64,000 nt of DNA from an uncultured Actinomycetota bacterium (GTDB taxonomy: Bacteria > Actinomycetota > Actinomycetes > Propionibacteriales > Nocardioidaceae): assembly GCA_963839565.1 (NCBI GenBank), contig CAWIVR010000027.1, positions 196,897 through 260,896 on the forward strand. Reading direction: 5' to 3'. Positions 10,370-34,130 of this stretch are shown in pieces. Position numbers and translations under genes: made by a program. Each line of letters begins with the position of its first letter. The stretch's first letter is position 1. The notes under the pieces are model-generated. The model did not search any database and was not told the DNA's origin. It worked only from the letters and a program-made list of their open reading frames with translations.

Positions 10370-10406
10370 TCGGTAAAGAACCCGAAAGGGCGTGGTTCTT
10401 TACCGA
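10370..10406. promoter_or_regulatory. 13-bp perfect inverted repeat (operator and/or terminator)
   Basis: TCGGTAAAGAACC-N11-GGTTCTTTACCGA between the Lrp gene stop and the Fn3-protein start; the arms match the motif at 15115, 18211 and 34121. Confidence 0.65.
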
Positions 10407-10440
10407 AATTGGGCCGCTTTTCACCCCGAGGGGCGGCCAG

Positions 10441-10719
10441 TCAGTCCAGGCCGAGCGCGAAAGCGGACTCGAGGTCGTGGCGGGAGTAGGCCCGGAAGGC
10501 GATGTGCGTCTCGGTCGAGGTGACGCCCGGCACCTTGTTGAGCTGGTCGGCCACCACCGCCGCCACGTCCTCGTGGTTGCGGACCCGCACCATCACGATG
10601 AGGTCGACCTGGCCGGTCACCGAGTAGACCTCGCTGATCCCGTCGAGGGCAGCGATGGCCTCGGCGACCTCAGGGATCCGGGCGACGTCGGCCTTGACGA
10701 AGACGATGGCGGTGATCAC
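10441..10719 (-). CDS. Lrp/AsnC ligand-binding-domain protein
   Basis: MITAIVFVK...SEVYSVTGQVDLIVMVR...TETHIAFRAYS. Confidence 0.9.
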   Translation of the reverse strand: MITAIVFVKADVARIPEVAEAIAALDGISEVYSVTGQVDLIVMVRVRNHEDVAAVVADQLNKVPGVTSTETHIAFRAYSRHDLESAFALGLD

Positions 10720-10723
10720 GGGC

Positions 10724-11585
10724 TCAGACTACGGCCGTCGGCATCGAGCTCCGGCTCCCCGTCGTGGCGGACGATCCACCCAGCCCTCGGAGGCGGGGGA
10801 TCGCCGCCAGCATGGCGAAGGTGCCCCAGCCGACGACCGGGCTCGCGAGCACCATCGAGACCGGCACCAGCCACGGCCGGTCCGTCCGGGCGGCCACCAC
10901 GACCACCACGAGGGCCAGCGGGAACCGGACCGCCAGGGGGAAGGGGATGGCCACGGGGGACAGGTAGATCAGCCCGGACGAGTCGCCGGCGCTGGTCCGC
11001 AGGAAGTCGACCCAGTCCAGCCACGCCTGAGGGCTGATGAGCACCGAGACCGTGAGCAGCGCGAGGGCGGTCACGACGAACGTGGCGAGCCGGCGCCACT
11101 CACCCCTCGCCAGGAACCACACGGGACCCACGCAGGGCAGGACCTTGGTGAACGCGGCCACGCACCACGCGCTCGCGTGGGAGAACCCGACGACCGCCAT
11201 CACGGCCAGCAGCCAGAAGATGTTGCCGGAGAGGATCTCGGGCAGGCAGGCGAGCCACCCGCCGACGGCCAGCACGAGGGGCAGCGGGCGCAGCAGCCAG
11301 GCGACTCCGGCGGCTGCCGCCCCCACGAAGCACGGCGCAGAAGACGGCCCACGGCAGCAGCGTCAGCGGCCAGATGACCTGGGCGAACAGCGGGCTGTAG
11401 TTGTAGGCGTCGACCGACCCGGGCAGGGCCTCGTAGAGCCCTCCGGACCACGCCACGTAGTAGGCGTGCGCGTCCCAGCCGATGCCGTACTCCGCGCACA
11501 TCGCGACGGCGTGGATCGCGAGGTAGACCGCCAGCACGAGGAAGGCGTCGCGCAGGAGCCGCCTGCGGACGGACATGCCGGCCAT
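10724..11585 (-). CDS. Glycosyltransferase family 87 (DUF2029) membrane protein, frameshift near 11330
   Basis: WDAHAYY, AYNYSPLF, GNIFWLL and FTKVLP motifs in a hydrophobic protein. Confidence 0.75.
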
Positions 11586-11625
11586 GGTCCGACGGTAGGC
11601 GATGAAGCCCTCGGTCGGGCCGGTT

Positions 11626-13410
11626 TCAGCGGGTCGGTTGGTGCACCGGCGAGACGGCTCGCCGGTCGTCGAACGGCACCAGCGTCAGCCGGCTCTGGTT
11701 GACCGCGTCGTGGAGGGCCAGATGGCGGGTCGCCCCGGCGATCGGGCAGGTCCACTCGCCGTCGACGTCGACCAGGCGGATGCCCGGGGACTCCAGCCAG
11801 CGCAGGATCCGCTCGGTCTCCTCCGCCGTCGCGGCGGGGACAGGGCCGGCGGCGGTGGCCACCGTCTCGGCGGCGGCCCGCAGCTCGGTGACGTACTGCT
11901 GGGCCTCGCTGCCGGCGGGGATGACGCCGGCCGCGGCGAGCCGGCCGTGCCGGACGACGTGGACGGCCCAGCGGCCGTTGTCCTCGCGTCGGGCCGCGAC
12001 CAGCTCGGGCAGGCGGGTCAGGGCGGTCAGCCGCTGGGTGCGGGCGGCCGCTCGCACGAACGCCGCCAGCCGGTCGCGGTGGACGCCTGCCTCCTCGAAC
12101 CGCTCGTCGGTCGCGAGGGTCTCCATCCGCTGGTTGATGGCCTCGACGACCTCGTCGGGCCGCCGGACCAGGCTGTCGCGCAGCTGGCGGACCACGGCGG
12201 CGTACGTCGCCGGGTCGACGCTGCCGTCGCACGGCGAGAGGCAGCGGCCCATCTCCGCGAGCACGCAGGGCGCGCGTGAGGTGCGCGGCCCGATGCGGTC
12301 GGAGCACTGGCGGACGGGGAAGGTGTCGTGCAGCGCGGCCAGGCACTGCTCGGCCGTGCGCCGCGACCTGAACGGCCCGAGGTAGTCGGCACCGTCGTCG
12401 ACCACGCGCTTGACCAGCGACAGCCGCGGCCACGGGTCGGTGGTCAGCTTGATGAACGTGACCTTCTCGGGGAACCGCGAGCGACGGTTGTAGCGAGGCT
12501 TGTGCTCGGCGATCAGGCGCAGCTCGCGCACCTCGGCCTCCAACGGCGTTGCGCACTCGATGCCCGTCACCTCGGTCGCCAGCCCGACCATCTCGCCCAT
12601 CCGGCTGCGGGTCTCCGAGGACGTGAAGTAGGAGCGCACCCGGGCTCGCAGGTCGCGCGACGTGCCGACGTAGAGCACCCGTCGGCTGTCGTCGCGGAAC
12701 AGGTAGACGCCGGGCGCGTGGGGGAGGTGCTCGGCCAGGTGCCGCTTGCGACGCACCATCGGGCTGACCCGCGAGGAGAACGTCTGGAGCTCCTCGACGG
12801 TGTGCACGCCGAGCCCGCCGAGCCGCTCCATCAGCCCGTGCAGCACGTCGACCGTCGCCCGCGCATCGGCCAGGGCCCGGTGGTTGGGGGTCGTCGACGA
12901 CCGGAACACCTTGGCCAGGGACGACAGCTTGCAGTTGGGGGCGTCGTCGCGCGTGATCACCCGTCGCGCCATCAGCGCGGTGTCGAGGACCTCGAACGCC
13001 GGCCACGGACGGCCCTGCACCTCGGCGAAGTGGCGCAGGAAGCCGACGTCGAACGGCGCGTTGTGCGCGACCAGCACGCAGCCGCTCGCGAACTCGAGGA
13101 ACGCCGGCAGCGCCGACTCGATCGGCGGTGCGTCGGCCACCATCGAGTTGGTGATGCCCGTCAGCACGGCGATGAACGGAGGGATCGCCGTGTGCGGGTT
13201 GACCAGGGTCTGGAACTCGCCCAGGACCTCGCCGCCGCGCACCTTGACCGCCCCGATCTCGGTGATCATCGAGCCGGCCGCGGCCGAGCCGCCCGTCGTC
13301 TCGAGGTCGACGACGCAGAACGTCATCTCGCGCAGCGGCCGGCCGAGCTCGTCGAAAGTGCGTTGCGACTCCCATCGCGTCCCGCGATCGTTGACGCCGA
13401 GGAGCCCCAT
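11626..13410 (-). CDS. DEDD 3'-5' exonuclease (DnaQ-like) fused to a GIY-YIG/UvrC-like endonuclease
   Basis: VVDLETTG, VAHNAPFD and HRALADA exonuclease motifs; PGVYLF...LYVGTSRDLRARVRSYF and KPRYN; start placed at ATG 13410 by promoter spacing. Confidence 0.92.
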   Translation of the reverse strand: MGLLGVNDRGTRWESQRTFDELGRPLREMTFCVVDLETTGGSAAAGSMITEIGAVKVRGGEVLGEFQTLVNPHTAIPPFIAVLTGITNSMVADAPPIESALPAFLEFASGCVLVAHNAPFDVGFLRHFAEVQGRPWPAFEVLDTALMARRVITRDDAPNCKLSSLAKVFRSSTTPNHRALADARATVDVLHGLMERLGGLGVHTVEELQTFSSRVSPMVRRKRHLAEHLPHAPGVYLFRDDSRRVLYVGTSRDLRARVRSYFTSSETRSRMGEMVGLATEVTGIECATPLEAEVRELRLIAEHKPRYNRRSRFPEKVTFIKLTTDPWPRLSLVKRVVDDGADYLGPFRSRRTAEQCLAALHDTFPVRQCSDRIGPRTSRAPCVLAEMGRCLSPCDGSVDPATYAAVVRQLRDSLVRRPDEVVEAINQRMETLATDERFEEAGVHRDRLAAFVRAAARTQRLTALTRLPELVAARREDNGRWAVHVVRHGRLAAAGVIPAGSEAQQYVTELRAAAETVATAAGPVPAATAEETERILRWLESPGIRLVDVDGEWTCPIAGATRHLALHDAVNQSRLTLVPFDDRRAVSPVHQPTR

Positions 13411-13417
13411 GTTTCGG

Positions 13418-13440: not shown

Positions 13441-13512
13441 TCCTCGGCAGGGCACGCGCAATACGCTGGGGTTACGACATCCCGCCCCAGCGACCCGACG
13501 TCAGGAGCAGCC

Positions 13513-13773: not shown

Positions 13774-13786
13774 CCCGGAGACCGAC

Positions 13787-15098
13787 ATGGCCACCCAACC
13801 TGTGGGACCCGACGGCGGCGCGTACGACGACCTGTCGGCCCTGCCCGACCCGGTCCGCTCGCGCGTGCTGTCGCTCGCGGCCGACGTGCTGCCCCAGGTG
13901 GCCGGCCTGCCTCCCGCCGTACGACGGGTCGCGGACTTCGCGCCCAACCGGCGGGCGCGCCTGGGGGGAGCCGCGATCACCGGCGCGCTGCAGGACGACG
14001 AGCTCCGGGACCGGGTCGCCGTGCAGGTCGCTGCTCGCCCCGCCCGGGACGACGACCGGGTGGACGCCGCGGCCCGGGCGTGGCTGACGCGGGGGGAGGG
14101 CTGGACCGAGCTCGTGGAGCAGGTGGAGGCCGCCCTGGGGTCCGGTGCACGCGCGGCCGAGCGCGAACCCACCGAGCTGGCGCGGTTGCGCGAACGGCTC
14201 GAGGCGGCCGACCAGTCCCTCCGCGAGGCGCGGGCCAAGGCGCGGGCGCAGGTCGAGGAGTACAAGGCCGAGAACGCCACCCTCCGTCGCAAGCTCGGTG
14301 AGTCCCGCTCGTCCGAACGCCAGGCCCGCGAGACCGCGGAGGAGGCGTTGCAGCTGGCGCAGGAGGCCCGGGCCCGGGCCGCGACTTTGGAGTCGGCCCA
14401 GGACAAGGAGGTGCGCCAGCTGCGTGCCCGTGTCGAGCAGCTCGAGGCGGAGCAGGCCGCTCAGCGCCGCGAGGACCGGCGGACCTCGCGGGCCGATCGC
14501 GACGAGGCGACCATCCGGTCCCGGCTGCTGCTCGACGCCGTCATCGAGGCGGCGTCGGGGTTGCGCCGTGAGCTCGGCCTCTCGCCGGTCGCCGGCGCAC
14601 CGGCCGACCGGCTGGAGGCGGAGCTGTCCGAGCCCGTCGACGACGCCCGGACACCGGGGGCCTCGGGCGTGCTGGGTCCGGGCAGCGTCAGCATCCTCGA
14701 GCAGCTGCTGACCATGCCCCGCGCCCGGCTGCTCGTCGACGGCTACAACGTCAGCAAGGGCGCCTGGGCAGGCTCGTCCCTCGAGGCCCAGCGCCAGCGG
14801 CTGCTGCGCTCGCTCGCCCCGCTCGTCGCCCGGACCGGCGTCGAGACGACGGTGGTCTTCGACGCGGCGAACCTGACCAGCCGCCCCGTGGTCGCCGCCC
14901 CCCGCGGCGTGAAGGTGCTGTTCAGCCCGCCCGGCGTGATCGCCGACGACGTGATCCGCGACCTGGTCGCCGCCGAGCCCCCGGGCGGACCGTCGTCGTC
15001 GCGGGTCCGACGACCAGGAGGTCGTCCGGGACGCCCGGGCCGGCGGCGCCCGGGTGGCCTCTGCCTCCGCGCTGGTCGCGCTGCTCGACCGCGGCTGA
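13787..15098 (+). CDS. NYN (YacP-like PIN) domain protein with coiled coil; frameshift near 14990
   Basis: Long coiled coil, then LLVDGYNV...TVVFDA...ADDVI; the corrected frame ends ALVALLDRG-TGA at 15098. Confidence 0.82.
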
Positions 15099-15114
15099 CG
15101 CACCGTGGTCGCGG

Positions 15115-16122
15115 CGGTTTCTTTACCAAAGCGCGCGTTTGCGGGACTGGTGGGTCTGCTGGCTGTGAGACTTGCGGGGTTCCCTGTGAAGGAGTCCTGT
15201 CGTGATCTGGGTGATCGTCCCGGCCTTGAACGAGGCTGAGAACCTGCAGGTGCTGGTGCCGCGCATCGTGAAGACCCTGGAGTCGATGGGTGAGGGTGGC
15301 CGGGTGCTGGTGGTCGACGACGGTTCGACCGATGACACCGGTGAGGTGATGGCGGAGCTGGCCTCGACGTGGCCGGGGATCGAGCTGGAGACGTTGCGGC
15401 ACAACCAGGGCAAGGCGGCTGCGTTGCAGCGTGGTTTCGGCCGTGCGTTGGAGGGTGGCGCCGAGGTCGTGGTGATGATGGATGCCGACGGTCAGGACGA
15501 CCCGGACGAGCTGCCGAAGCTGGTGGCGCGGTTGGAGGCCGGCGCCGACCTGGTGACCGGGGCGCGGTTGATGCGGCAGGACCGGTTCGTGAAGCGGAAC
15601 ACCTCGAAGGTCTACAACCGGGTGACGGGGGTGTTGTCGGGTGCTCCGGGTCGGGACTTCAACTCCGGCTACAAGGTGATGACCGCCGACGTGGCTCGCG
15701 ATGTGACGCCGATGATGTACGGGGAGATGCACCGGTACCTGACGGTGATCGCGCACGACCTGGGTTACCAGGTGGTCGAGGAGGCGGTCCAGCACCATCC
15801 GCGGATGAGTGGTGAGAGCAAGTACGGGTTGGCGCGGTTCTGGCGGGGTTTCTCCGACCTGGTCACGGTGCGGTTCCTGTTGTCGTATGAGAACCGGCCC
15901 TCGCACCTGTTCGGTGGGGTGGGGGCGTTCTTGTTCTTCCTCGGCGTGGTGACGCTGGGTTACCTGACGGTGGACAAGATCACCGGTGAGCCCATCGGTG
16001 ACCGGCCGTTGTTGATGGCCGGGGTGCTGCTGACCCTGGTCGGGCTCCAGCTCGCGTTGTTCGGGTTGTTGGCCGAGCTGATCGTGCACGCCCGCAACCG
16101 CGACCGCGCCGCCCGGCCGTGA
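15115..16122 (+). repeat. Copy 1 of a ~1-kb near-identical direct repeat (leader plus GT2 gene); copy 2 is 18211-19221
   Basis: Homology starts at CGGTTTCTTTACCAAAG in both copies; the proteins are identical except the last residue. Confidence 0.95.
15202..16122 (+). CDS. Glycosyltransferase family 2, polyprenol-phosphate glycosyltransferase (GtrB/ArnC/DPM-synthase-like), copy 1
   Basis: VIVPALNE, VVDDGSTD, MDADGQDDP, DFNSGYK, GEMHRY and SKYG motifs; two C-terminal TM helices. Confidence 0.92.
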   Translation: MIWVIVPALNEAENLQVLVPRIVKTLESMGEGGRVLVVDDGSTDDTGEVMAELASTWPGIELETLRHNQGKAAALQRGFGRALEGGAEVVVMMDADGQDDPDELPKLVARLEAGADLVTGARLMRQDRFVKRNTSKVYNRVTGVLSGAPGRDFNSGYKVMTADVARDVTPMMYGEMHRYLTVIAHDLGYQVVEEAVQHHPRMSGESKYGLARFWRGFSDLVTVRFLLSYENRPSHLFGGVGAFLFFLGVVTLGYLTVDKITGEPIGDRPLLMAGVLLTLVGLQLALFGLLAELIVHARNRDRAARP

Positions 16123-18189
16123 CCGACGGGCCGCCCGGCGCGTTCACTGGCACGGGCACCGCCCCTCGAGTCCGTCGTGTGGGCCGCCCTCGCGGTCTGC
16201 GTCGGCGGGCGCGCTCATGGTGCTGCTCGGGAGCCTGGCGGATCGGGCATCTGGACCGACGAGCCGGCGCATGTGCTGCGCTACGAGAATCTGCAGGAGC
16301 ACGGCTGGTACCTGCTCGACGACGACTTCGACGGTGACGAGCCGGGGTCGTGGGTGACCGACCAGTACGTCTACGCGCCGGTCTTCACCCAGGTGATGCA
16401 CGTGGTCAACCGGGTGGTCGGCCTGGACCCGCCGGGTGCGCTGGGCACCTCGGTCGAGGCGTACGCCGCTCGGCACCTGGTCGTCGGCGCTGTGCGGCCT
16501 GCTGGGTGTCTTCGCGGTGGCCGCGATCGGGCGCCGGCTCCTCGGCTCCTGGGCCTGGGGACTGGTGGCGGCCGCGACCCTGATGGCGATCCCGATGTGG
16601 CCGGGACTCTCGATGTTCGACATCAAGGACGTCCCCGCGGCCACCGGCTACACCCTGGTCACCTGGGCCCTGGTCGAGCTCCTCTTCCAACAACCACCAC
16701 GATGGCGCACCGCCTGGGGGCGTATCGCCATCCTCACCAGCCGGCCTGATCCTCGCCATCGGCTCCCGACCCGGACTCTGGCCCGGACTCGCCGCCAGCC
16801 TCGGGGTCGCGGCGCTCCTGGCGTGGAAGCGTCCAGGAATCGATGGGAGCTCCTCGAAGCGTCTGATGTTCCTCTCGGGCTTCGTCGCGGTCGCCGGTGC
16901 ACTCGCCTACCTGGTGCTGTGGATCTCCTACCCGGCCGTGTTCTCCCGTCCACACGAATGGCTGCTCGGCTCCGTGGTCGGCTCGGCCGACTACACCGGC
17001 ACGGCGACGGGGAGCTATGACTCGTCTTGGGCCTACCTCCCGGGACGCGTCGCGGTCGTGATGCCCCCACTCCTGCTGCTCATCGGCGCAGTGGGGATGC
17101 TGACCCTGGTGCCCAAGCGGCTGCCGAGGGTGACGCCCGAGGTGTGCGGCTGGCTCCTCGTCGCCTCTCAAGCCCTCCTGTTGCCCGTCCTGGCGATCGT
17201 CCGGCAGTCGTTGCTGTACGACGATCTGCGGCAGCTGCTCTTCGCCTGCCCGGCGGTCGCGCTGTTGCTGACCGCGGGCTGGAAGAAGTTCGTCGCTGAT
17301 CTCGGACGGGAGTCCACGACAACTCGTTCGGTCCTCGGCCTGGTGTGGTCACTGGCCCTGCTCGCACCCATGGCCGTCCAGATCCAGTTGTTCCCGTATG
17401 GCTACTCCTACGCGGCTCCCCAGGCCGTGGCGGCCGCGAGCTGCGATCGAGAACGACTGGGGCCGCGTATCGCTTCGTGAGCTCCTGCCGCAGGTTCCGG
17501 ACGGAGAGTTCGTGATCTGCCATCCGTTCCTGTCAGCGCATGGGGAGACGCTGCGCTCTCTCCCTCCGACCGGCCGGCCTGCCGCGGAGGCGAGCTCGGA
17601 CTGCCGCACCGACCCGATGAGCACCCTGACGCCGTACGGACTGGCCGACGAGGACCCGAACAGATCACGTCGTTGACGACACGTTCTTGGCGCTGTTCTC
17701 TCGGGGACGCCCACCCGGCCGCAACTGTGAGGTGCTGGGGTCGGTCGAGCGGTGGCGGTACTTGGCTCGGGTGGTGATGAGCACGGCCGCTCGTTGTGAT
17801 CTGGTCCTGAACGCGTATCCGGTGATGCGGTGTGACGTTCGGACCGGATGGTTCGGGGGCGGAGTTCTTGTTGGGTGGTTGGACGTCTCACCCGTCCGAG
17901 CCTGGTGTACGGCTCCGAGAGCCGTTTGGAAGCTTCGGTTTCGAGTTGCCCGAGAGCTGGGCGGGCGGCTGGGCTGCGGCTGCGGTTGGAGGGCCTGGCG
18001 TCGGAGGTGCCGGAGGTGTGGGTGAACAACGAGCTCGTCGCTGGTGACGTCCACGGAGCTCGGGGTGGGTGGTGGAGGTGCCTGCCGAGGTGGTGGCGGC
18101 GATGGGGGAGCGGCGGCTGGTGGTGACGGTGGCGCAGCCGGCCGGGGACGCCGTTGGTGCTGACGGGGGTCTCGGTCGAGCCGAGCTGA
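16119..18189 (+). CDS. GT-C/PMT-like membrane glycosyltransferase, copy 1; multiple frameshifts, end approximate
   Basis: TDEPAH after the first TM, MFDIKDVPAATGY, LLYDDLRQLLF, LFPYGY; extracellular C-terminal domain. Confidence 0.6.
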
Positions 18190-18210
18190 GGGTCGGTCGT
18201 CGGCCGGGAC

Positions 18211-19221
18211 CGGTTTCTTTACCAAAGGGCGCGTTTTCGGGACTGGTCGGTGCTGCTGGCTGTGAGACTTGCCGGGTTCCCTTTGTGAAGGAGTCCTGTC
18301 GTGATCTGGGTGATCGTCCCGGCCTTGAACGAGGCTGAGAACCTGCAGGTGCTGGTGCCGCGCATCGTGAAGACCTTGGAGTCGATGGGCGAGGGTGGCC
18401 GGGTGCTGGTGGTCGACGACGGTTCGACCGATGACACCGGTGAGGTGATGGCGGAGCTGGCCTCGACGTGGCCGGGGATCGAGCTGGAGACGTTGCGGCA
18501 CAACCAGGGCAAGGCGGCTGCGTTGCAGCGTGGTTTCGGCCGTGCTTTGGAGGGTGGCGCCGAGGTCGTGGTGATGATGGATGCCGACGGTCAGGACGAC
18601 CCGGACGAGCTGCCGAAGCTGGTGGCGCGGTTGGAGGCCGGCGCCGACCTGGTGACCGGGGCGCGGTTGATGCGGCAGGACCGGTTCGTGAAGCGGAACA
18701 CCTCGAAGGTCTACAACCGGGTGACGGGGGTGTTGTCGGGTGCTCCGGGTCGGGACTTCAACTCCGGCTACAAGGTGATGACCGCCGACGTGGCTCGCGA
18801 TGTGACGCCGATGATGTACGGGGAGATGCACCGGTACCTGACGGTGATCGCGCACGACCTGGGTTACCAGGTGGTCGAGGAGGCGGTCCAGCACCATCCG
18901 CGGATGAGTGGTGAGAGCAAGTACGGGTTGGCGCGGTTCTGGCGGGGTTTCTCCGACCTGGTCACGGTGCGGTTCCTGTTGTCGTATGAGAACCGGCCCT
19001 CGCACCTGTTCGGTGGGGTGGGGGCGTTCTTGTTCTTCCTCGGCGTGGTGACGCTGGGCTACCTGACGGTGGACAAGATCACCGGTGAGCCCATCGGTGA
19101 CCGGCCGTTGTTGATGGCCGGGGTGCTGTTGACCCTGGTCGGGCTCCAGCTCGCGTTGTTCGGGTTGTTGGCCGAGCTGATCGTGCACGCCCGCAACCGC
19201 GACCGCGCCGCCCGGATGTGA
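18211..19221 (+). repeat. Copy 2 of the near-identical leader plus GT2 repeat
   Basis: Direct comparison with 15115-16122. Confidence 0.95.
18301..19221 (+). CDS. Glycosyltransferase family 2, copy 2
   Basis: Same protein as 15202-16122 except the last residue (P to M). Confidence 0.92.
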   Translation: MIWVIVPALNEAENLQVLVPRIVKTLESMGEGGRVLVVDDGSTDDTGEVMAELASTWPGIELETLRHNQGKAAALQRGFGRALEGGAEVVVMMDADGQDDPDELPKLVARLEAGADLVTGARLMRQDRFVKRNTSKVYNRVTGVLSGAPGRDFNSGYKVMTADVARDVTPMMYGEMHRYLTVIAHDLGYQVVEEAVQHHPRMSGESKYGLARFWRGFSDLVTVRFLLSYENRPSHLFGGVGAFLFFLGVVTLGYLTVDKITGEPIGDRPLLMAGVLLTLVGLQLALFGLLAELIVHARNRDRAARM

Positions 19222-21280: not shown

Positions 21281-21298
21281 GACGACGATCGCGCAGCG

Positions 21299-21321
21299 TT
21301 GTCGGTGGTCCCTGTCAGAGT
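21299..21321 (+). promoter_or_regulatory. PafBC/RecA-NDp-type promoter, leaderless
   Basis: TTGTCGGTG-N8-CAGAGT then 7 nt then ATG 21329; exact -35 match, -10 has C instead of T at position 1. Confidence 0.65.
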
Positions 21322-24160: not shown

Positions 24161-25423
24161 GTGACGCGTCCGGTGGCCAGCGTGCGGACGGTCGCCGCGG
24201 CCGTGGCTGTCGTCGGGGCCGTCTGTTTCGTCACCCTGGCAGTCGTGCTCGTCCCGTGGCACCCGGTCCCCGGTGGCGGGCCCTCCACCTTGCCGGCCCC
24301 CGACACCGTGCTCTCAGCGGAGCAGCTCGCCCGGGCTGAGGCGTACGCCGGCCCCGCCCGCTGGCTGGGCTGGTCCTCGCTCCTCGTGTCCCTGGTGGTC
24401 GTGTGCTGGCTGGGCTTCACCGAGGCGGGCGCGCGGCTGGTCGGCCGGCTGCGGGGCTGGTGGTGGGTGCGGGTGGTGCTCGGGGTCGCCCTCGTGTCGC
24501 TGGTCGGCAGGCTGGCCACGCTGCCCTTCGCCATCGTCGCCTACCGCCGCCGCGTCTCCTACGGTCTCTCCACCCAGGCCTGGCCCGACTGGCTGCGCGA
24601 CGTCGCCGTCTCGTGGGCGGTCAACGTGGTGGCGAGCAGCCTGGTGCTGCTCGTCATCGTCGGCACCGCGCGGCGCTGGCGGACCTGGTGGCCGGCGATC
24701 GCGGCGGGGATCGCCGCCACCCTCGTGATGCTGGGCTCGTTCGTCTACCCCGTGCTGGTCGAGCCGCTGTTCAGCTCCTTCACCCCGCTGCCCGACGGGC
24801 CCCTGCGCACGGGGGTGCTCGAGCTGGCCGAGGCCGAGGGCGTGCACGTCGACGACGTGCTGGAGGCGGACGCCTCGCGCCGGACCACGACGCTCAACGC
24901 CTACGTGTCGGGCTTCGGCAGCACGCGGCGGGTGGTGCTCTACGACAACCTCGTCCGCGACGTCCCGGAGGACCAGGTGCTCTCGGTCGTCGCCCATGAG
25001 CTGTCGCACGCGCGGCACGACGACGTGCTCACCGGGTCGCTGCTCGGCGCGGCCGGGTCCGTGCTGGGCATCGGCTTGCTCGGCCTGGTGATCGAGCGAC
25101 GGCGGAAGCGGGCACACGGGCCCGAAATGCAGAGAACCGCCGGAGATCCGGCGGTGGTGCCACTGGTCCTGGCCCTGGTGGCGGTGGCGGGGCTGCTGGC
25201 CAGTCCGATCCAGAACGGGATCAGCCGGCGGATCGAGACCCGAGCGGATGTCGACGCCCTGCTCGCGACGCACGACCCGCAGGCGTTCATCGAGGTCCAA
25301 CGGCAGCTGGCGATCCGATCACTGGCGGATCTGACCGGGCCGGCCTGGTCGCAGTTCTGGTTCGGCAGCCACCCGACGACGCGTGAGAGGATCGCGATCG
25401 CCGGGTGGCTGTCGGACCGGTAG
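24161..25423 (+). CDS. M48 (Ste24/HtpX) membrane metalloprotease
   Basis: NAYVSGFG, AHELSH, ETRAD and SHPTTRERI motifs with TM helices. Confidence 0.92.
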   Translation: MTRPVASVRTVAAAVAVVGAVCFVTLAVVLVPWHPVPGGGPSTLPAPDTVLSAEQLARAEAYAGPARWLGWSSLLVSLVVVCWLGFTEAGARLVGRLRGWWWVRVVLGVALVSLVGRLATLPFAIVAYRRRVSYGLSTQAWPDWLRDVAVSWAVNVVASSLVLLVIVGTARRWRTWWPAIAAGIAATLVMLGSFVYPVLVEPLFSSFTPLPDGPLRTGVLELAEAEGVHVDDVLEADASRRTTTLNAYVSGFGSTRRVVLYDNLVRDVPEDQVLSVVAHELSHARHDDVLTGSLLGAAGSVLGIGLLGLVIERRRKRAHGPEMQRTAGDPAVVPLVLALVAVAGLLASPIQNGISRRIETRADVDALLATHDPQAFIEVQRQLAIRSLADLTGPAWSQFWFGSHPTTRERIAIAGWLSDR

Positions 25424-25431: not shown

Positions 25432-25664
25432 TCAGCAGTGGCTGCCCATGTTCTGGCTGATCGAGTTGCAGGTCTCCTGTGAAGAGGTTCGAGGAAGATG
25501 CCTTGGCCGAAGGCGAAGACGGCCGCGAGGATGACGGCGGCGATGCCGGCGACGAGCAGGCCGTACTCCACGGCAGAGGCGCCGCGCTCGTCCTGGTCGC
25601 CCCGAGCCGGGGCGCCGTGACGCGGAGCAGCAGGCTGCAGCAGCTGGGGGGCGAGGACATGCAT
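25432..25664 (-). CDS. flp: Flp family type IVb pilin 2 (indels near both ends)
   Basis: AGGAG RBS; DERG|ASAVEYGLLVAGIAAVIL; the corrected C-terminus ends CNSISQNMGSHC. Confidence 0.8.
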
Positions 25665-25683
25665 GGTGGCTCCTAGTGAGGCC

Positions 25684-25722
25684 GTGGCCGTGGGCCTGGG
25701 CGAGACCCAGGCCCACGGCCAC
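25684..25722. terminator. 17-bp perfect intercistronic hairpin between the two flp genes
   Basis: GTGGCCGTGGGCCTGGG-CGAGA-CCCAGGCCCACGGCCAC. Confidence 0.75.
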
Positions 25723-25746
25723 GTCGAGCTGACACGAGCTGAGCGA

Positions 25747-25941
25747 TCAGTTGGCAGCCGGTGCGATCGAGTCGTTGGTGTTCTGGAAGACACCGCTCAG
25801 GGTGCCACCGAGCAGGAAGACGATGCCGACGATGACGGCGGCGATGCCGGCGACGAGCAGGCCGTACTCAACGGCGGAGGCGCCGCGCTCGTCCATCTTG
25901 GCGAGGCGGGCGTTGAGCATGATGCGGAGGTAGTCCAGCAT
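25747..25941 (-). CDS. flp: Flp family type IVb pilin 1 (likely major pilin)
   Basis: MLDYLRIMLNARLAKMDERG|ASAVEYGLLVAGIAAVIVGIVFLLG; AGGAG RBS. Confidence 0.93.
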   Translation of the reverse strand: MLDYLRIMLNARLAKMDERGASAVEYGLLVAGIAAVIVGIVFLLGGTLSGVFQNTNDSIAPAAN

Positions 25942-26055: not shown

Positions 26056-26071
26056 TAGTCCTTTCGGACTA
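26056..26071. promoter_or_regulatory. Palindrome TAGTCC-N4-GGACTA, candidate NarL/LuxR-family operator
   Basis: Perfect 6-bp arms, 14 nt upstream of the putative -35 element of flp. Confidence 0.5.
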
Positions 26072-26149: not shown

Positions 26150-26821
26150 CTAGTCGCGGAGGTCGCGGCTGGGCAGGCTCGAGAGCAGCCCGATCCGCAT
26201 CGCCGTCACCAGTGCCTGGGCCCGGTTGCTCGCGCCGAGCTTCTGGTAGATGCGGGCGATGTGGGACTTGGCCGTGGACTCGCTGAGGTAGAGCTGCTGG
26301 GCGATCTGGCCGGCGCCCAGGCCGTCGGCCAGCAGCACCAGCACCTGGTGCTCCCGGTCGGAGAGCCGCGTCGACTCCGCCGACGCACGACGCATCATGG
26401 CGCCGACCAGGCCGGCGCAGAGGAACGACCGAGGAGACACCACGGCGTGCTTGGCCGCCTTGACGACCTCGGCGCTCGGCGCGTCCTTGCCGACGAAGGC
26501 GGACGCGCCGGCCTCCATGGCCGCGAAGATCTGGTCGTCGCCCGAGTGCATGGTGACCACGACCAGGCCCGCCTGCTGGTTGTCGCGGCGGATCGCCCGG
26601 ATGATGTCGAGTCCGGTGCCGTCGGGCAGCTGGAGGTCGGTGACGACGACCTGGGGTTCCTGCCCCTCGTAGACCTTCAGCGCCTCGGTCACCGTGGCGG
26701 CTTCGCCGACGACGGTCATCCCGGGCTCGCGGCCGAAGGCGCCGACCAGGCCCTGTCGGATGAGCTCGTGGTCGTCGACGACCAGGACCGTGGTGTCGCC
26801 TTCGGGGGTGTGGAGGCTCAT
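26150..26821 (-). CDS. NarL/LuxR-family response regulator
   Basis: VLVVDDH, VVTDLQLPDG, LSDREHQVL...STAKSHIARIYQKLG. Confidence 0.93.
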   Translation of the reverse strand: MSLHTPEGDTTVLVVDDHELIRQGLVGAFGREPGMTVVGEAATVTEALKVYEGQEPQVVVTDLQLPDGTGLDIIRAIRRDNQQAGLVVVTMHSGDDQIFAAMEAGASAFVGKDAPSAEVVKAAKHAVVSPRSFLCAGLVGAMMRRASAESTRLSDREHQVLVLLADGLGAGQIAQQLYLSESTAKSHIARIYQKLGASNRAQALVTAMRIGLLSSLPSRDLRD

Positions 26822-26849: not shown

Positions 26850-28481
26850 TCACGGCTGCAGGACACGCCCCGAACCGGCAGGGTTGCTGCTGGGAGACGG
26901 GCTCTCAGCCGATCGGAGCACGGTGTGACGGCTCGACGGTGAGCCCTCGAGGACGACGGAGATGATGGTTCCTCGAGGCTCGCGTCGCTGGACGGTGAAG
27001 CGCGCCTCGACGAGCCGGGCGCGCTCGGCCATGATCTCCAGCCCGTGCGAGTCCTCGCGACGGCCCAGGATGCCCCGGCCGTCGTCGGCGATGGTGATCT
27101 CGGCCAGGGGAGGCGCCACGGTGCACTGGACCTCGATCAGGGTGGCCTCGGAGTGCCGGACCGCGTTGTTCATCGCCTCCTGGGTGATCCGCAGGAGCTC
27201 CGCCTCGACGTCGGGGCGCAGGCGTTGCGTGCTCTCGTCGAGGGTGACCTGGATCGGGACGCCCGAGCCGCCGCTGAGATGGCGTGCCAGCGACCCGATG
27301 GCGGTGCCGAGGCTCTCGTTCTCGCCGACGCTGGTGCGCAGCGTGCGCACGGACGCGCGGACCTCGCCGACCACGCTGCTGAGCCGTTCGCGCAGGACCT
27401 GGAGGCGCATCGTCAGCTCGGGCGAGTCGCTCTCGGCCATCAGGTCGTCGACGAGATAGCCCAGCGAGGCCATCTCCTGGGCCACCCCGTCGTGCATCTC
27501 GCGGGCCAGGCGTCGCCGTTCCTCGACGGTCGCGGCGTCGCGGAACGCGGCGAAGAGGAGCGCCGTGTCGAGGTGCACGATGTCGGGCTCGAGGCGGGTG
27601 GCCAGGTTGGTGAGGGTGGTGTGCAGGCCCAGGGCGGCGGGGTCGAGACCGGGGGAGAGGAACCCCGTGACGACCGCGACGGTGCCGGCGCCGCTGCCCA
27701 GCGGCAGCGCGAAGGCGTGCGCGTCGACGAGGATCGTCTGGTGCCGGAACGCACGGTCGGCCAGCTCCTCGGCCTCCTGCACCTCGTCGCCCGTCCCGGT
27801 GTGGTCGTTGATGATGGGGGTGAGCTGCTCGCCGCGAGGCACGTGCACGACCAGCCCGCGCACCGGCAGCTCGTCGTGCACCGCGCTGGCGATCATGGCG
27901 GCGAGGGTGACCGGCTCCAGGCCGCGGTGCAGCTCGTCGGAGAGCCCGATGAGCTCGCGGATCAGCGCCTGGGCGTTGCGGTAGGAGTCGAGCGGGTCGA
28001 CGGGCTCGCGGTAGGTCGCGTGGATGAACGTCCCGATGAGCGCCAGCCCGAGGCTGAAGATCGTCCAGGTCACCAGGCTCGTCGACCGCCGGGATCGAGA
28101 TCCCGCCGGTGACCGTCACGATCGTGACGCCGAAGGCCGACGAGCTCGATCACCAGCGACGCGAGGGCGCCGACCGCTCCGCGTCGCAGGGCGGCGGTGA
28201 AGGGCGGGAAGGCCAGGACGGTGAGGACCTGGTAGCTCTCGGTCGAGCGCGAGGGCGCTGGCCATCCCGATCAGGGCGGCCTCGCCCGCGATGGTGACGA
28301 CGGCCGGCACGTCCATGCGCTCGGCCGCCGTCGCCGCCAACCAGATGCAGCCGATGGCGAGCACGGCCAGGACGGCGGTGCTGTCGTTCGCCAGCACGCT
28401 CGCCACCGCGAGCGCGACGAGCGCGAAGCCTCGCGTCGTCACGGACAGGAAGCCGTACTGACGCGGAGACCGCTCGGTCAT
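26850..28481 (-). CDS. Membrane sensor histidine kinase (HisKA_3), frameshifts near 28080-28200
   Basis: N-terminal TM array; REMHDGVAQ, EAMNNAVRH, DDGRG and HGLEIM; start overlaps the tadC stop (TGATG). Confidence 0.85.
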
Positions 28482-29411
28482 CAGTCGATTCCGGCGAACT
28501 GGTCCATGATCTGGATCACGGCCGGGCCCATGATGACGATGAACAGCGACGGCAGGATGCAGAAGATCAGCGGGATCGTCATCTTGACCGGCACCTGCTG
28601 GGCCTTCTCCTCCGCCCGCTGACGGCGCTTCACCCGCATCTCGGACGACTGCACGCGCAGCACGTTGGCGATCGGGATGCCGAACGCGTCGGCCTGGACC
28701 ATCGAGCTGACGAACGACCGCAGCTCCGCCAGGTTGGTGCGGTCGGCGAGCGCGCGCAGCGCCTCGGAGCGCGAGGACCCGATCTGCATCTCGCGGAGCA
28801 CCCGCGAGAACTCGTCGGCCAGCGGACCCTCGGTGTTGTGCGCGACCTGCTGCAGCGCGGCGTCGAAGCCGAGACCGGACTCCACCGAGATGGTGAGGAG
28901 GTCGATGGCGTCGGGGAGCTCGCGCTGGATGCGGTTCGAGCGGTCGTAGGTGCGCTGGTAGAGGTACATCGCCGGGGCGAAGAAGCCGGCCACGGTGACG
29001 CCGACGACCACCAGGATCTTCGTCATCGGGCTGCCGAGCATGAACGAGAACAGCAGGCCACCGGCGAAGCCGGCCATGGCTCCGACGACCTTGCCGCTCA
29101 TCACCCGGTCGACGGTCCAGCCGGGCGGGTTGCCGGCGAGGTCGAGCTTGCGCCGGATCCGCTCGGAGCTGTCAGCCCCGGAGAGCCGGCGGCCGAGGCC
29201 GGCGAAGCGGTTCTGCAGCGGGATCAGCACCCGCTCGCCGAACGGACTTGTCGAGGTCGGCCTTGAGCTCGCTCGGCGCCGTGGTCATGGCCTCGATCAG
29301 CTCGAGCGACCGGGCGACGCCCGTGCTCGGAGCTGCGTTGCGCGCCGCGGAGGCCGCGAGAGCGAGCGCGGTGAACACCAGCAGCACGCCCATGATGCCC
29401 AGCATGGTCAT
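28481..29411 (-). CDS. tadC: Tad pilus platform protein TadC (frameshift near 29235)
   Basis: ELPDAIDLLTISVESGLGFD...AEEKAQQVPVKMTIPLIFCILP. Confidence 0.88.
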
Positions 29412-30422
29412 GGGTCAGACCTCCACCTTGACGATGCGCGACATCCAGAAGGCGCCGACGCCGAGGATGCAGCACGCTGCCGGCCAGCATGAGGTAGCCC
29501 AGCGGGCGCGACCACAGGACCGAGACGTAGTCGTACTTCGTGAAGCAGCAGGTAGATGAAGAACAGCGGCGGCAGGCCACCGAGCACGAACGCGGACAGC
29601 TTGCCCTCCGCGGCGAGGGCCGCGACCTGGCGGCGCATGTACTCGCGCTCACGGATCGTGGCGGCCACGGTGTCGAGCAGCTCGGCCAGGTTGCCACCGA
29701 CGCGGCGCTGGATGTTGATGGCCATCACCACCCAGGCGAAGTCCTTGCTGTCGAACCGCTCGGCCACGCCCTCGAGCGCGGTCTCGAGGCTGACTCCGAG
29801 GCGGGTCTCGACCAGCACCCGGCGGAACTCCGACGAGATCGGGTCGACTGCCCTCGTTGACGATGGTGTCGATCGACTGCGCCAGGGACAGACCCGCGGT
29901 CAGCGACCCGGCCATCAGCTGGAGGGTGTCGGGCAGGGCCTTGCTGAACCTGTTGCGGCGGCGGCTGCGCTTGAAGCCGAGGCACATCCACGGCAGCAGC
30001 GACCCCGCCAGCGAGGAAGAGCAGCCCGATGAACAGGCTGCCGCCACCGATGACGGTGCCGACGAACCCGGCCACGATCACGATGCCGACGTGCAGCAGC
30101 AGCCACTCGGAGGCGTTCAGCTGGCTGCCGGCCGCCTCGAGACGCGCGTTGATCCGCATCTCGACGCTCTTGTTGCGGCGGAGCAGCTCCGCGGCCGCGG
30201 ACTTGGCCGTCGCCAGCTGGTCCTGCTGCTGGGGCGCGGCGTGGTGGCCGGTGCCCGTGCGCCCGGACGTGTACATCTCGACGGTTTCCTCGGCGGTCAT
30301 CTCCCGCGGTTGCGGGATCGCCATGGTGAGGACTCCGAGGAGGCCGATGCCGAGGGCGACGAGACCGGCGTAGAGGGCCCAGGGTGGCAGGTCGGTCAGT
30401 GCCAGGACGACGACAAGCGGGC

Positions 30423-30426
<4 letters not shown>
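29408..30426 (-). CDS. tadB: Tad pilus platform protein TadB (several frameshifts)
   Basis: [34 protein letters not shown] and AEGKLSA across frames. Confidence 0.85.
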
Positions 30427-31976
<1,550 letters not shown>

Positions 31977-31981
31977 GGCGA

Positions 31982-33169
31982 CTACCTCCGGATCCTGAAC
32001 ATGCGGGAGCGCCGCTCACCGTCTACTTCTGCATGACGGCCGGGCTCCTGGTCTGAGTTGGGGACGGCGTCCCCGGTGAACATCGCCGCCAGGTTGCGGA
32101 TGGCCGCGCTGGACGGGTGGTTGGGCGTCGACGTGAGGATGGGCACCCCTGAGTTGGTGGACGCCGCGATGTCGATGGACGTGGTGATCTGGGTCGAGAT
32201 GTCCATGCCCAGGATCGACTCGACCTTCTGGGCGTCGATCCCGACCGCGTCGTCCGCCCGGTTGAGCAGCAGGTGCCGGTGGCCGCGGCCGATGTTCAGC
32301 ATCTCGAGGGTGTCCAGGGCGACCTTGACGTTCTTGAGGGTGGGCACGTCGAGCGTCGCGATGATCACGCACTCGTCGGCGTCCTCGAGCGTGGTCAACG
32401 TCTGCTCGTCGAAGGCGGGCGCCGTGTCGACGACGACGTAGTCGAACATGGTGCGCAACGTCGTCAAGGTCTGGCTGATGAGCGTGGGCGAGATCCGTTC
32501 GCGGACGTCGGGGTGGCTCGGCGCGGGCAGCACCTTCAAGGAGTCCTGGTAGCGCGCCAGCAGGGACTCGAGCAGGGCCACGTCGACGTTGCCCTCCGAC
32601 CCGATCGCGTGCTCGATCGTGTGCGTCGGGAAGAGCTGGAGCGTGATCGCCACGTCGCCGAACGCCAGGTCGAAGTCGACCAGGCAGACCTGCCGGCTGC
32701 CCTTGTCGGTCAGCGCCAGGGCGAGGTTGACCGCGATCGTGGTCTTGCCGACGCCACCCTTGGGGGAGAACACGGCAATCACGCTGCCCTGGTGCGCGGC
32801 CTGTCCCGGACCCCGCAGCGCCACCGAGAACTGGTGGGCGCGCGTCACGGCGCCCGCGATGCTGTCGAGGTCGTTGATGGCGACCACCTCGCGGGCCCCG
32901 GCCTGCATGGCGCGGGCCAGGGTCTGCGTGTCGAAGCTCTCGCGGACCAGGACCACGCCCATCATCGGGCGACTGACACGGAGCCCTTCGCAGACGGTGA
33001 CGGCGTCGTCGAACCGGACGTTCGGTCCCAGCACGATGACGTACTCATCGGAGTGCTGCGACAACCACGGGAGCAGTCGTTCGATCGAGTCGACCGACTG
33101 ACATCCCGGCGGCAGGGCGCCGAGGAGCCGGCGAACGCTGCCACTGTCGGGATCGACGATGACGGGCAT
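31982..33169 (-). CDS. cpaE: CpaE/TadZ (receiver-like plus MinD/ParA ATPase)
   Basis: SPKGGVGKTT deviant Walker A, LVDFDLAFGD, VVDTAP. Confidence 0.9.
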   Translation of the reverse strand: MPVIVDPDSGSVRRLLGALPPGCQSVDSIERLLPWLSQHSDEYVIVLGPNVRFDDAVTVCEGLRVSRPMMGVVLVRESFDTQTLARAMQAGAREVVAINDLDSIAGAVTRAHQFSVALRGPGQAAHQGSVIAVFSPKGGVGKTTIAVNLALALTDKGSRQVCLVDFDLAFGDVAITLQLFPTHTIEHAIGSEGNVDVALLESLLARYQDSLKVLPAPSHPDVRERISPTLISQTLTTLRTMFDYVVVDTAPAFDEQTLTTLEDADECVIIATLDVPTLKNVKVALDTLEMLNIGRGHRHLLLNRADDAVGIDAQKVESILGMDISTQITTSIDIAASTNSGVPILTSTPNHPSSAAIRNLAAMFTGDAVPNSDQEPGRHAEVDGERRSRMFRIRR

Positions 33170-33195
33170 GGCCTACCTTCCGGTCACGAGCGGGG

Positions 33196-33954
33196 TCAGG
33201 GCAGGACGTCGGTGTTGGTGGTGGCAGGAGAGTCGGCCTCCACGGTGCTGTCCTTGGTGAGCAGCGCGAAGGTGACGTCGAGCGTCTTCGACGCCAGGAT
33301 CACCTTCTGCGCGTCCTGCTGCGACAGGGCGAGCGTCAGCAGGGTGCGCGGCAGCTGCTCGGTCTGCTGGGTGCCGTCCTCGGCAGTGGTCGTCGTCGTG
33401 ACCGGCGTCGTGCTACCGACTCCGAGCACGGTCACGCGATCCAACAGCACGTTGGTGGCGGGTCCGGCAGCTCCGCCGGCGGCGACGTCGCCTCCCTCGG
33501 TGGTCGTGACGAAGATCGCCACTTCCGAACCCGGGTTGACGAAGCCGGCGACCCGGTCGGGGTCGGTCAGGTTGACCGAGATGGCCATCTTGCCCTCGGG
33601 GATGCCGAGCGGCGAGACCGCCTCCGCGACGTTGTTGCCGAACTTGTCGGCCACGACCTGCTCACCGACGAACAGGTTCTGCAGGGCAACGGTGCCCTTC
33701 AGGGCGTCGGGGCTGGTCTGCACGTTGGCGAGGAGCTGGCTGCGAGCCACTGCGGAGGCAGCGATCTTGCCGGCGGCCAGGGCGTCGTCGTAGCTCTCGC
33801 CCGCGGTGATGGGCTGGCTGACCGTGAGGACCTGGACGGCGTCGACGCTCTCCTGAGCACGAGCGTCGGCGTTCCGGACGTAGAGGAAGACGAGGAGTGT
33901 GCCGAGTGCGGCGACTACGGCGGCGATGATGAGGAGGATCCTGCGGCGATCCAT
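33196..33954 (-). CDS. cpaB: Flp pilus assembly protein CpaB/RcpC (SAF domain)
   Basis: MDRRRILLIIAAVVAALG, GKMAISV, VAGFVNPGSEV, TLLTLAL. Confidence 0.9.
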   Translation of the reverse strand: MDRRRILLIIAAVVAALGTLLVFLYVRNADARAQESVDAVQVLTVSQPITAGESYDDALAAGKIAASAVARSQLLANVQTSPDALKGTVALQNLFVGEQVVADKFGNNVAEAVSPLGIPEGKMAISVNLTDPDRVAGFVNPGSEVAIFVTTTEGGDVAAGGAAGPATNVLLDRVTVLGVGSTTPVTTTTTAEDGTQQTEQLPRTLLTLALSQQDAQKVILASKTLDVTFALLTKDSTVEADSPATTNTDVLP

Positions 33955-33981
33955 CGGCGGTGACCCTTTCGGTGCCTGGAG

Positions 33982-34051
33982 GTCGACCCAGCACCCCCCA
34001 GCGCTGAGCTTGGTCTGCGGTGATTTCTGCGGACGACGATGTGGTCTTGAG
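33982..34051 (-). promoter_or_regulatory. Two tandem FliA/WhiG-like promoters upstream of cpaB
   Basis: CTCA-N17-GCAGAA (34051-34025) and CTCA-N17-GTCGAC (34008-33982). Confidence 0.5.
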
Positions 34052-34087
34052 CAATGTGGCGGGCCTTGGGCGGCTCGCCTCACGAAT

Positions 34088-34130
34088 CGTAAAGGCGCCC
34101 TCGGAGGCGTGGGGGCTTTTCGTAAAGAAA
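34088..34130 (-). promoter_or_regulatory. CTTTACG direct repeat, 33-bp period
   Basis: TTTCTTTACGAAAA (at 34130) and CCTTTACGATT (core at 34094) on the minus strand; same core as 10370-10406, 15115 and 18211. Confidence 0.5.

Follow-up and report, generated by a model that had tools for sequence, protein, structure and literature searches.

Within the 64,000-nt stretch analysed here (the window; C27:196897-260896 of a 4.46-Mb, 27-contig genome of 71.5% GC from an uncultured member of the Nocardioidaceae), a rare AT-rich motif built around CTTTAC recurs in the leaders of cpaB, the first gene of a Tad pilus operon, of a large Fn3/Ig-like surface-protein gene, and of two tandem cassettes that each begin with a GT2 glycosyltransferase gene (Table 1). 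A first-pass annotation had proposed that the motif joins these genes in one surface-appendage and glycosylation regulon. Our comparisons support that it is a selected, promoter-associated element common to the cpaB, Fn3 and GT2 leaders. The proposed regulon was partly supported, with cpaB, the Fn3 gene and, less firmly, GT2 linked in the clade to which the window belongs; the anatomy, breadth and regulator proposed for it need revision.

All motif sites named in the annotation were located in the window, whose GC content ranges from 0.68 to 0.76, with the sequences as written. The 9-mer TTCTTTACS matched five times against 0.06 expected, and five or more matches were obtained in 0 of 100 shuffles. 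The five matches represent three independent events, namely the Fn3 palindrome, the duplicated GT2 leader and the cpaB leader. None of the six copies of CTTTAC in the window lies outside the motif sites; the sixth (34089-34094, minus strand) forms with the copy at 34121-34129(-) the 33-bp period described for the cpaB leader. In the whole genome TTCTTTACS was found seven times. The two copies outside the window lie inside a terminator-like hairpin 3' of dapC (C23:49536) and close to an HNH gene (C9:130740), with no surface gene next to either. The longer 12-mer TTCTTTACSRAA has four exact matches in the genome, every one in the window; allowing one mismatch added just the other palindrome arm and C23:49533, and the matches at two mismatches looked random. 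Genome-wide, CTTTACSRA gave nine matches, all noncoding, among them one in a tRNA gene and one in a terminator. On the codon model of the genome from which the noncoding mask was built, all motif copies score -0.32 to -0.59 for coding likeness (genome 5th percentile -0.31, 10th -0.12) and thus belong to the least coding-like part of the genome. The one-mismatch scan of the 9-mer was dominated by coding TTCTTCACC/TTCTTGACC and hence uninformative. With seven copies in 4.46 Mb and homology that ends at about 12 nt, the 9-mer does not behave as a repetitive extragenic palindromic (REP) or miniature inverted-repeat transposable element-like family, and Rfam returned no RNA family at the motif sites, the c-di-AMP riboswitch being its sole match in the window.

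As a look-elsewhere control, we counted every AT-rich 8-mer present in at least three independent noncoding places per 64-kb window. Of 194 overlapping windows, 8 (4%), at about four distinct loci, held one. The strongest of the other matches was on C21 at ~48.5-83 kb, where ATTTCGTA and AAATGGTT co-recur at 3-4 noncoding places in 35 kb and may represent another local motif. A long T/C-rich low-complexity run at ~245.1-246.0 kb of C10 is quite unlike the rest of the genome and may stem from foreign DNA or from an error of assembly.

We found that the motif is selectively conserved in the clade of the window, defined as relatives with CpaB at least 80% identical, Nocardioides islandensis included. 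The cpaB alignment comprised seven leaders with CpaB 80-100% identical (the window; the others 93, 89, 85, 85, 81 and 80%); leaders from contigs with identical CpaB were too similar to be informative. Invariant columns made up 17/18 of the motif compared with 24/126 (19%) of the rest of the upstream part, and TTTACGAAAA and CCTTTACGATTC were invariant in all seven leaders and always 33 bp apart, with a variable spacer and variable flanks. For the Fn3 gene, we aligned ten contigs that carry an identical RAM-domain protein, encoded immediately 5' of the Fn3 leader, but differing leaders, together with the P0020 metagenome-assembled genome and N. islandensis. Here 18/20 motif columns were invariant compared with 31/90 (34%) elsewhere; the leaders keep AWTTTCGGTAAAGRACCACG, which 11 near relatives, P0020 and N. 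islandensis all share, and CTTTACCGATACTGGCGCGGACA, the latter with one change, in L082, and diverge in the 9-11 nt between the blocks, in the 30 nt that follow the stop codon and in the signal-peptide codons. The GT2 alignment, of five leaders with GT2 87-100% identical and including three single-cassette relatives, had 7/9 invariant motif columns compared with 31/94 (33%) elsewhere. TCTTTACC and GGAC are invariant in it, the distance to the -35 is constant at 16 nt, and the extended -10, TGTGA(G/C)ACT, is kept.

In the N. islandensis genome CTTTACSRA gave nine matches compared with two for the control. According to our reading of the flanking sequence, by which all these matches were assigned, the noncoding ones belong to the Fn3 pair, to the cpaB leader and, at one site, to the rbpA leader, and the others appear to fall in a tRNA gene or in coding sequence. 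Apart from the motif sites, this species carries at locus L189 (C7:79556) five or six units of GTGCTTTACCGG, in which CTTTACC recurs every 12 nt and which on the other strand may be the coding sequence of a Gly-Lys-Ala repeat. The motif leaves a phylogenetic footprint in all three leaders within the clade and none at genus level, and at three independent promoters it stands at a fixed position relative to the predicted core promoter. Where the sites lie, how they are spaced and that the clade conserves them selectively are direct observations.

The two copies in front of cpaB stand 33 bp apart from centre to centre, about three helical turns. The distal one, which includes the TTCTTTACG (34121-34129) of the first-pass annotation, would be centred ~42 bp 5' of the transcription start if transcription begins 6-7 nt after the -10. 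The most plausible -10 hexamer is TACGAT (34086-34091), which lies inside the proximal element and aligns with the TAGAGT/TACAGT/TAGCGT of cpaB leaders across the genus, both being 24-25 nt from the A-tract. The earlier placement of both copies upstream of the promoter would thus have to be given up, as the proximal copy overlaps this predicted -10. Beside the ribosome-binding site, a 48-nt block of the cpaB 5' leader, CTCAGCGCTGGGGGGTGCTGGGTCGACCTCCAGGCACCGAAAGGGTCA (33961-34008, minus strand), is invariant in all clade leaders down to 80% CpaB identity and may act in translation control or as an RNA element.

The Fn3 leader carries, as annotated, a perfect 13-bp inverted repeat (10370-10382 / 10394-10406, spacer 11 nt) 38-76 nt 5' of the GTG at 10330. 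Its description as an inverted repeat fits the window, where the arms are perfect, and not the relatives, in which pairing is lost and two sequence-conserved blocks remain. L082 has three uncompensated mismatches between the arms, and N. islandensis can pair 9 bp and keeps the unpaired AACCACG. We accordingly rejected an RNA or DNA hairpin as the meaning of the Fn3 palindrome. The two blocks have a centre distance of 31 bp, again about three helical turns, and the distal one would lie ~44 bp 5' of the start, with GATACT (10366-10371) or TACCGA as the likely -10. GATACT is 41 nt from CCAATT in this leader, the same distance as for TACCGT in G019. The distal elements have opposite orientations in the cpaB and Fn3 leaders, which the element tolerates because it is nearly palindromic. 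Both promoters align over ~45 nt (AAAG, 2-3 nt, CCACGCC, and 20 nt to the GAT end). Among noncoding sequences of the whole genome, CCACG-N10-20-TTTAC has three matches and CCACG-N12-20-TAC(N0-1)GAT four, and both composite patterns were matched solely at the cpaB and Fn3 leaders. A sigma-70 consensus scan gave no promoter-like match at the motif sites.

At the GT2 cassettes there is one element per leader, which would be centred near -53 of a promoter with its own -35. The copies precede the GTG codons at 15202 and 18301 by 75-83 nt and lie at the duplication's left edge, and in this respect the annotation, which put the motif where the duplicated homology starts, was accurate. The two cassette copies are 99% identical in their 5' part and 72-79% in their 3' part. 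Three relatives (L193-L195) have one cassette each, with GT2 92, 88 and 87% identical, and in the two of them with identifiable upstream genes the single cassette occupies the same yacP-to-NlpC/P60 slot as in the window. N. islandensis has no GT2 cassette. Cassette orthologues were present in 2 of 40 Nocardioides genomes of the genus-level set, with leaders unrelated to those of the window, and a DNA-level search with the GT2 leader in these 40 relatives gave coding-region matches alone, the species being too diverged.

Table 1 Motif sites, predicted promoter parts and genes of the window (64,000 nt; position 1 is its first letter).
Feature	Position	Strand	Basis or remark
TTCTTTACS sites	10372-10380(-), 10396-10404(+), 15119-15127(+), 18215-18223(+), 34121-34129(-)		Window scan
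cpaB distal element CTTTACGAAAAG, 12-bp quasi-palindrome CTTT-N4-AAAG	34116-34127	-	Sequence
cpaB proximal element CCTTTACGATTC	34084-34095	-	Invariant 12-mer in 7 clade leaders
CCACGCC at cpaB -35 position, also in Fn3 promoter	34106-34112	-	Kept in 5/7 clade cpaB leaders
Fn3 distal element, gene strand ATTTCGGTAAAG (reverse complement of CTTTACCGAAAT)	10398-10409	-	Right repeat arm
Fn3 proximal element CTTTACCGATAC	10367-10378	-	Left repeat arm; over predicted -10
CCACGCC at Fn3 -35 position	10389-10395	-	ACCACG clade-invariant; spacing as in cpaB
GT2 cassette 1 element CTTTACCAAAG (CTTT-N3-AAAG)	15121-15131	+	16 nt 5' of -35
Predicted promoter of cassette 1	-35 GGGACT 15143-15148; extended -10 TGTGAGACT 15164-15172; ribosome-binding site 15188-15194; GTG 15202	+	
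GT2 cassette 2 element	18217-18227	+	Duplication copy; predicted -35 18239-18244, -10 18264-18269; GTG 18301
~3.1-kb tandem duplication (GT2 and frame-broken membrane-protein gene)	15115-21308	+	Copies 99% identical in 5' part, 72-79% in 3' part
SigK-type extracytoplasmic function (ECF) sigma, RskA anti-sigma, fasciclin protein	3161-5049	+	
ECF sigma/anti-sigma pair (SigK/RskA type)	3161-4362	+	
Large Fn3/Ig-like surface-protein gene, signal peptide, several frames	7400-10330	-	Pfam and frame scan
92-aa Lrp/AsnC RAM-domain-only protein, no helix-turn-helix	10441-10719	-	PF01037, 1e-18
GT87	10724-11326	-	
RNase T / GIY-YIG / UVR nuclease	11626-13410	-	
YacP-like NYN protein, frameshifted close to its end	13802-15098	+	
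GT2 genes, each with a frame-broken membrane-protein gene 3' of it	15202-16122, 18301-19221	+	
c-di-AMP riboswitch ahead of NlpC/P60	21696-21865	+	RF00379, 52.5 bits
NlpC/P60 hydrolase	21877-22866	+	
M48 peptidase	24173-25423	+	
Two flp pilin genes	~25500-25941	-	
LuxR-type response regulator, in Tad operon	26150-26821	-	Pfam
Histidine kinase, in Tad operon	26850-28073	-	Pfam
tadC	28481-29230	-	Pfam
tadB	29408-30426	-	Pfam
tadA	~30423-31980	-	Pfam
tadZ	31982-33169	-	Pfam
cpaB (RcpC/CpaB), first Tad operon gene	33196-33954	-	Pfam
AMP-binding ligase	34153-36381	-	

Outside the clade, the genus keeps the neighbourhood and the promoter positions and not the motif. In the 40 Nocardioides genomes the 9-mer gave 103 summed matches (about 2.6 per genome) compared with 126 for the reversed control, with no enrichment and no local clusters, and CTTTAC was absent from the homologous positions of orthologous leaders. 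Near cpaB elsewhere in the genus, CTTTACS was seen twice: G014 has it as a Leu-Tyr codon pair where the ligase gene ends, and G006 as a lone copy. Among 80 further Nocardioides species loci found through the RAM protein, one carried the motif; in all, it is missing from the orthologous leaders of the 40 genomes and of 78 other species. A regulon signal extending over the genus was thus not borne out. In most relatives the AMP ligase lies 5' of cpaB and the RAM-only gene 5' of the Fn3 gene. In the ~18 genomes with both on one contig, the Fn3 gene is located 15-34 kb 3' of cpaB on the same strand, and the Fn3 orthologues have open frames of 1000-1950 aa. The genus leaders keep a -10-like TANNNT, which is TAGAGT or TACAGT at cpaB and TAGCGT at Fn3, and 20-25 nt 5' of it they carry T-tract/A-tract palindromes or GTTTCGCC-like boxes. 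Distant Nocardioides have palindromes at the same position of the cpaB leader, such as GTTTCGTGAAAC and ATTTGCACAAAAT, and many have a TAGTC(C/A)-N4-GGACTA-like palindrome farther 5' of Fn3 or cpaB. These other palindromes at the same positions suggest an old regulator site whose sequence would have turned over between lineages.

Regarding the remaining gene context, the first 201 aa of the Fn3 gene gave Pfam matches to fn3, SusE and Tissue_fac. Protein names place the genome in Nocardioides, and exact proteins of the window were found again on soil-metagenome contigs, so that the lineage is one of metagenome-assembled genomes. Short-range changes of reading frame occur in yacP (14950-15100), tadB (29400-30430), tadA (31200-31990), the Fn3 gene (7400-10330) and both membrane-glycosyltransferase genes, including 16140-18190. 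Gene calls on related metagenome contigs are fragmented in like manner, and the breaks are probably assembly indel errors rather than pseudogenes. The ECF sigma, RskA-type anti-sigma and fasciclin genes correspond to the mycobacterial SigK-RskA-MPT70/83 trio and have a leader with tandem TTGGACAAA. The 92-aa RAM-only protein (loci L104-L183) is 83-95% identical across at least 80 Nocardioides and Marmoricola species, which is unusually strong conservation for so small a protein, and in most of the genus-level genomes examined its gene is directly 5' of the large Fn3 gene.

The conserved copies could instead be core promoter elements recognised by an alternative sigma factor, such as one of the ECF type, with CTTTAC(C)GAT as the -10 region, CCACGCC as the -35 region and, between -52 and -37, an AT-rich UP-like element bound by RNA polymerase itself. 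We consider this unlikely, even though the aligned -10 hexamers fall on the proximal copies, CCACGCC stands at identical spacing to GAT in cpaB and Fn3, no other stretch of the leaders is as AT-rich as the distal blocks, which lie in the classical UP-element zone, and the window encodes a SigK/RskA-type ECF pair. The leader of sigK has neither CTTTAC nor CCACG...GAT, and control by SigK was rejected on this ground. In addition, the CTTTAC blocks are invariant even in the cpaB leaders of N. islandensis, which has lost CCACG, and of P0020, in which it is altered, an invariant block of 10-12 nt exceeds what a -10 hexamer or a UP element normally needs, and GT2 has the distal block yet a different core promoter. 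The sigma-28 consensus is TAAA-N15-GCCGATAA, which the motif copies misfit: ACCGATAC in the Fn3 leader resembles a -10 but its TAAA is 24 nt upstream, and cpaB has just CGAT, so that sigma-28 (FliA/WhiG) was rejected. By eye, none of the consensus sequences for sigma-28, SigF, SigD, the NarL heptamer, DosR, GntR (GGT-N5-ACC) or the RcsB box fits all copies. It is more improbable still that each copy functions separately with no common factor and that AT-rich promoter pieces converged in a genome of this GC content. The 4% of windows that passed the look-elsewhere control, the noncoding location of all nine CTTTACSRA matches and the lack of genus-wide enrichment all speak for such convergence. 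It would have to accommodate, however, a 12-nt identity shared by four independent sites and the lack of matches at intermediate mismatch numbers, the match of the cpaB and Fn3 promoters over ~45 nt with equal spacings, and the presence of the motif in both of these leaders in N. islandensis.

Every copy lies 21-46 nt past a stop codon, as an intrinsic terminator would, and the copies might be structural, ending the preceding co-oriented gene as terminator arms and U-tracts or as REP-like hairpins. The perfect 13-bp stem of the Fn3 copy, the hairpins of -24.5 and -18.4 kcal/mol that precede the GT2 copies, which themselves supply a TTTCTTT tract, the GC hairpin with A-tract and T-tract flanked by the C23 copy, and the rarity of T-tracts in the genome (~100 in noncoding DNA) are all consistent with this. 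Nonetheless we judge it very unlikely, since what relatives keep is the sequence and its promoter spacing and not the pairing: the changes in the Fn3 arms are uncompensated, and the hairpins upstream of GT2 vary, whereas TCTTTACC is kept at a constant distance from the -35. Upstream of the cpaB distal copy there is no hairpin (-3.5 kcal/mol), the Fn3 stem encloses a loop of 11 nt and is not followed by a U-tract, and a stem-loop with U-tract was marginal at the GT2 copies. Among the motif sites, the scan for terminator-like sequences gave matches only at GT2 and at cpaB, where the match was on the wrong strand, and the copies are too few for a REP family. Hardly credible is the annotation's own alternative of a recombination or amplification site that made the tandem GT2 duplication. 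The cassette homology does begin within 4 nt of the motif, but single-cassette relatives already have the motif in their yacP-GT2 spacer, the window has no third copy where cassette 2 ends, neither the cpaB nor the Fn3 copies adjoin a rearrangement border, and no recombinase gene is nearby.

On balance, the motif is probably the operator of one sequence-specific DNA-binding protein, built into three promoters and restricted to this lineage. We favour this putative operator because it accommodates the footprints and the fixed spacing, the palindromic sequence with its two-site geometry, and the fact that both promoters changed in parallel in the clade. A function was doubted at first because the 9-mer is not enriched in the 40 genus genomes; the relatives at intermediate distance reversed that view. 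Most likely the motif would switch the Tad operon, the Fn3 gene and the glycosyltransferase cassette together.

Several points weigh against this interpretation. A motif at three independent promoters makes a thin regulon, and the flp pilin leader has a different palindrome and no copy of the motif. Clustering alone is weak evidence (p ~0.04 per window, modest after look-elsewhere correction), to which the extended 12-nt identity adds weight. The clade genomes are close, and shared ancestry may be part of the conservation, though the flanks diverge. The invariance of the proximal copies could reflect a core-promoter constraint, given that these overlap the predicted -10. The GT2 footprint is the weakest of the three, and the GT2 copies come after hairpins and with a T-tract that score terminator-like. 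Finally, the C23 copy lies in an ordinary terminator hairpin, of which there is no counterpart among the nine N. islandensis matches.

Under the operator interpretation, the cpaB and Fn3 promoters would each lack a recognisable -35 hexamer and carry two copies on the same helix face. The distal copy would be a 12-bp quasi-palindrome, CTTTAC(C/G)RAAA(G/T) (CTTTACSRAAAK), centred ~42-44 bp 5' of the start, and the proximal copy a half-palindromic CTTTAC(C)GAT located 31-33 bp (three turns) downstream, over the -10. The distal site would be placed as the site of a class II activator, whose position, like that of a UP element, it appears to share together with the absent -35 hexamer, and the proximal site would be placed as a repressor site. 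Unlike class II activator promoters, these would have a second copy over the -10, which is typical of repression, and a GT2 copy at ~-53. GT2 would have one copy, 16 bp 5' of a self-sufficient promoter. We speculate that a multimer bridges both sites and gates the access of RNA polymerase at cpaB and Fn3, and an Lrp/AsnC-type assembly is one candidate binder. Protein binding, a single factor for the three promoters, the direction of control and the assignment of -10 hexamers and starts are what we infer from the sequence.

As to the binding protein, the kinase and the LuxR-type regulator in the Tad operon would be the obvious candidates at a guess. The annotation proposed the latter (26150-26821), to which nothing links the motif; the adjacent flp leader contains another palindrome, a perfect TAGTCC-TTTC-GGACTA (26056-26071), and the embedded regulator may well not be the binder. 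Similar noncoding palindromes, often followed by TGG, were found at C12:20166, C17:16773, C7:82654, C10:262066, C21:150708, C27:54108, C7:204673 and C5:13300. Because it occurs in the flp leader, 5' of Fn3 and cpaB in other Nocardioides and at about eight noncoding sites of the genome, the TAGTCC palindrome is the more natural site of a widely conserved regulator, and it probably serves the Tad/Fn3 neighbourhood throughout the genus as a second operator. For the CTTTAC sites, an Lrp/AsnC-type assembly may be the binder, given the conserved RAM-only gene, the phasing at three turns and imperfect palindromes rich in AT, by analogy with properties of that family. The genome has five AsnC-domain loci, none of them adjacent. 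Lrp operators, such as that of the Escherichia coli pap pilus promoter, are AT-rich imperfect palindromes of ~12-15 bp, several of which stand in ~three-turn phasing across the promoter, and the Lrp consensus is YAGHAWATTWTDCTR, which the window motif does not resemble. The likeness to Lrp/AsnC multi-site operators is one of geometry only: the copies are 31-33 bp apart, and the RAM-only gene is directly 5' of the Fn3 leader. Unlike Lrp at pap, there is no adjacent full-length Lrp/AsnC gene, the RAM-only protein has no DNA-binding domain, and GATC methylation sites are lacking.

By analogy, the closest functional precedent would be the PprAB regulon. The PprAB two-component system is encoded beside the tad locus, and PprB is a LuxR-type response regulator. 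In Pseudomonas aeruginosa, PprA-PprB is a case in which one regulator co-controls type IVb Flp/Tad pili, the giant adhesin BapA and CupE fimbriae, and a putative 9-bp AT-rich PprB site, GGCTAATAC, has been mapped in that GC-rich genome (PMC3510237, PMC6821963). The window likewise has a kinase and a LuxR-type regulator in the Tad operon and a large Fn3 gene as conserved neighbour. The two cases differ in phylum and in the word itself, the likeness here being in gene arrangement alone. Moreover, the flp leader of the window carries TAGTCC-N4-GGACTA and not CTTTAC, and the third member is a glycosyltransferase cassette here and a chaperone-usher fimbria there.

The element is thus a lineage-restricted case of an ordinary class, an operator common to a few surface-structure promoters, and unsurprising in kind. 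To our knowledge, little is known of Tad/Flp pilus regulation in Actinobacteria. The reach of the finding is limited by organisms that are uncultured or little studied and by three target promoters. It is a tentative possibility that the clade replaced the whole upstream control module of the Tad operon and Fn3 promoters, which are 23 kb apart, in parallel by a new two-site operator, and that the accessory, horizontally patchy GT2/membrane-glycosyltransferase cassette was then captured into this circuit via one copy. If so, the Fn3 protein would be a dedicated partner of the Tad pilus, as an adhesin or a glycosylated substrate, and the locus would be a clean natural case of co-ordinated operator turnover, in which an Lrp/AsnC-type assembly modulated by the RAM-only protein is possible. 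Glycosylation of Flp or of the Fn3 protein is pure conjecture at this point. What the element offers is a compact, conserved and mutable link between the Tad operon, an Fn3 protein of at least ~1000 aa and a polyprenol-type glycosylation cassette in soil Nocardioides; it is a concrete bait for the regulator and predicts joint expression of the three units. In this genus, cis-elements turn over between lineages while promoter architecture and neighbourhood persist, which matters for regulon prediction by motif transfer.

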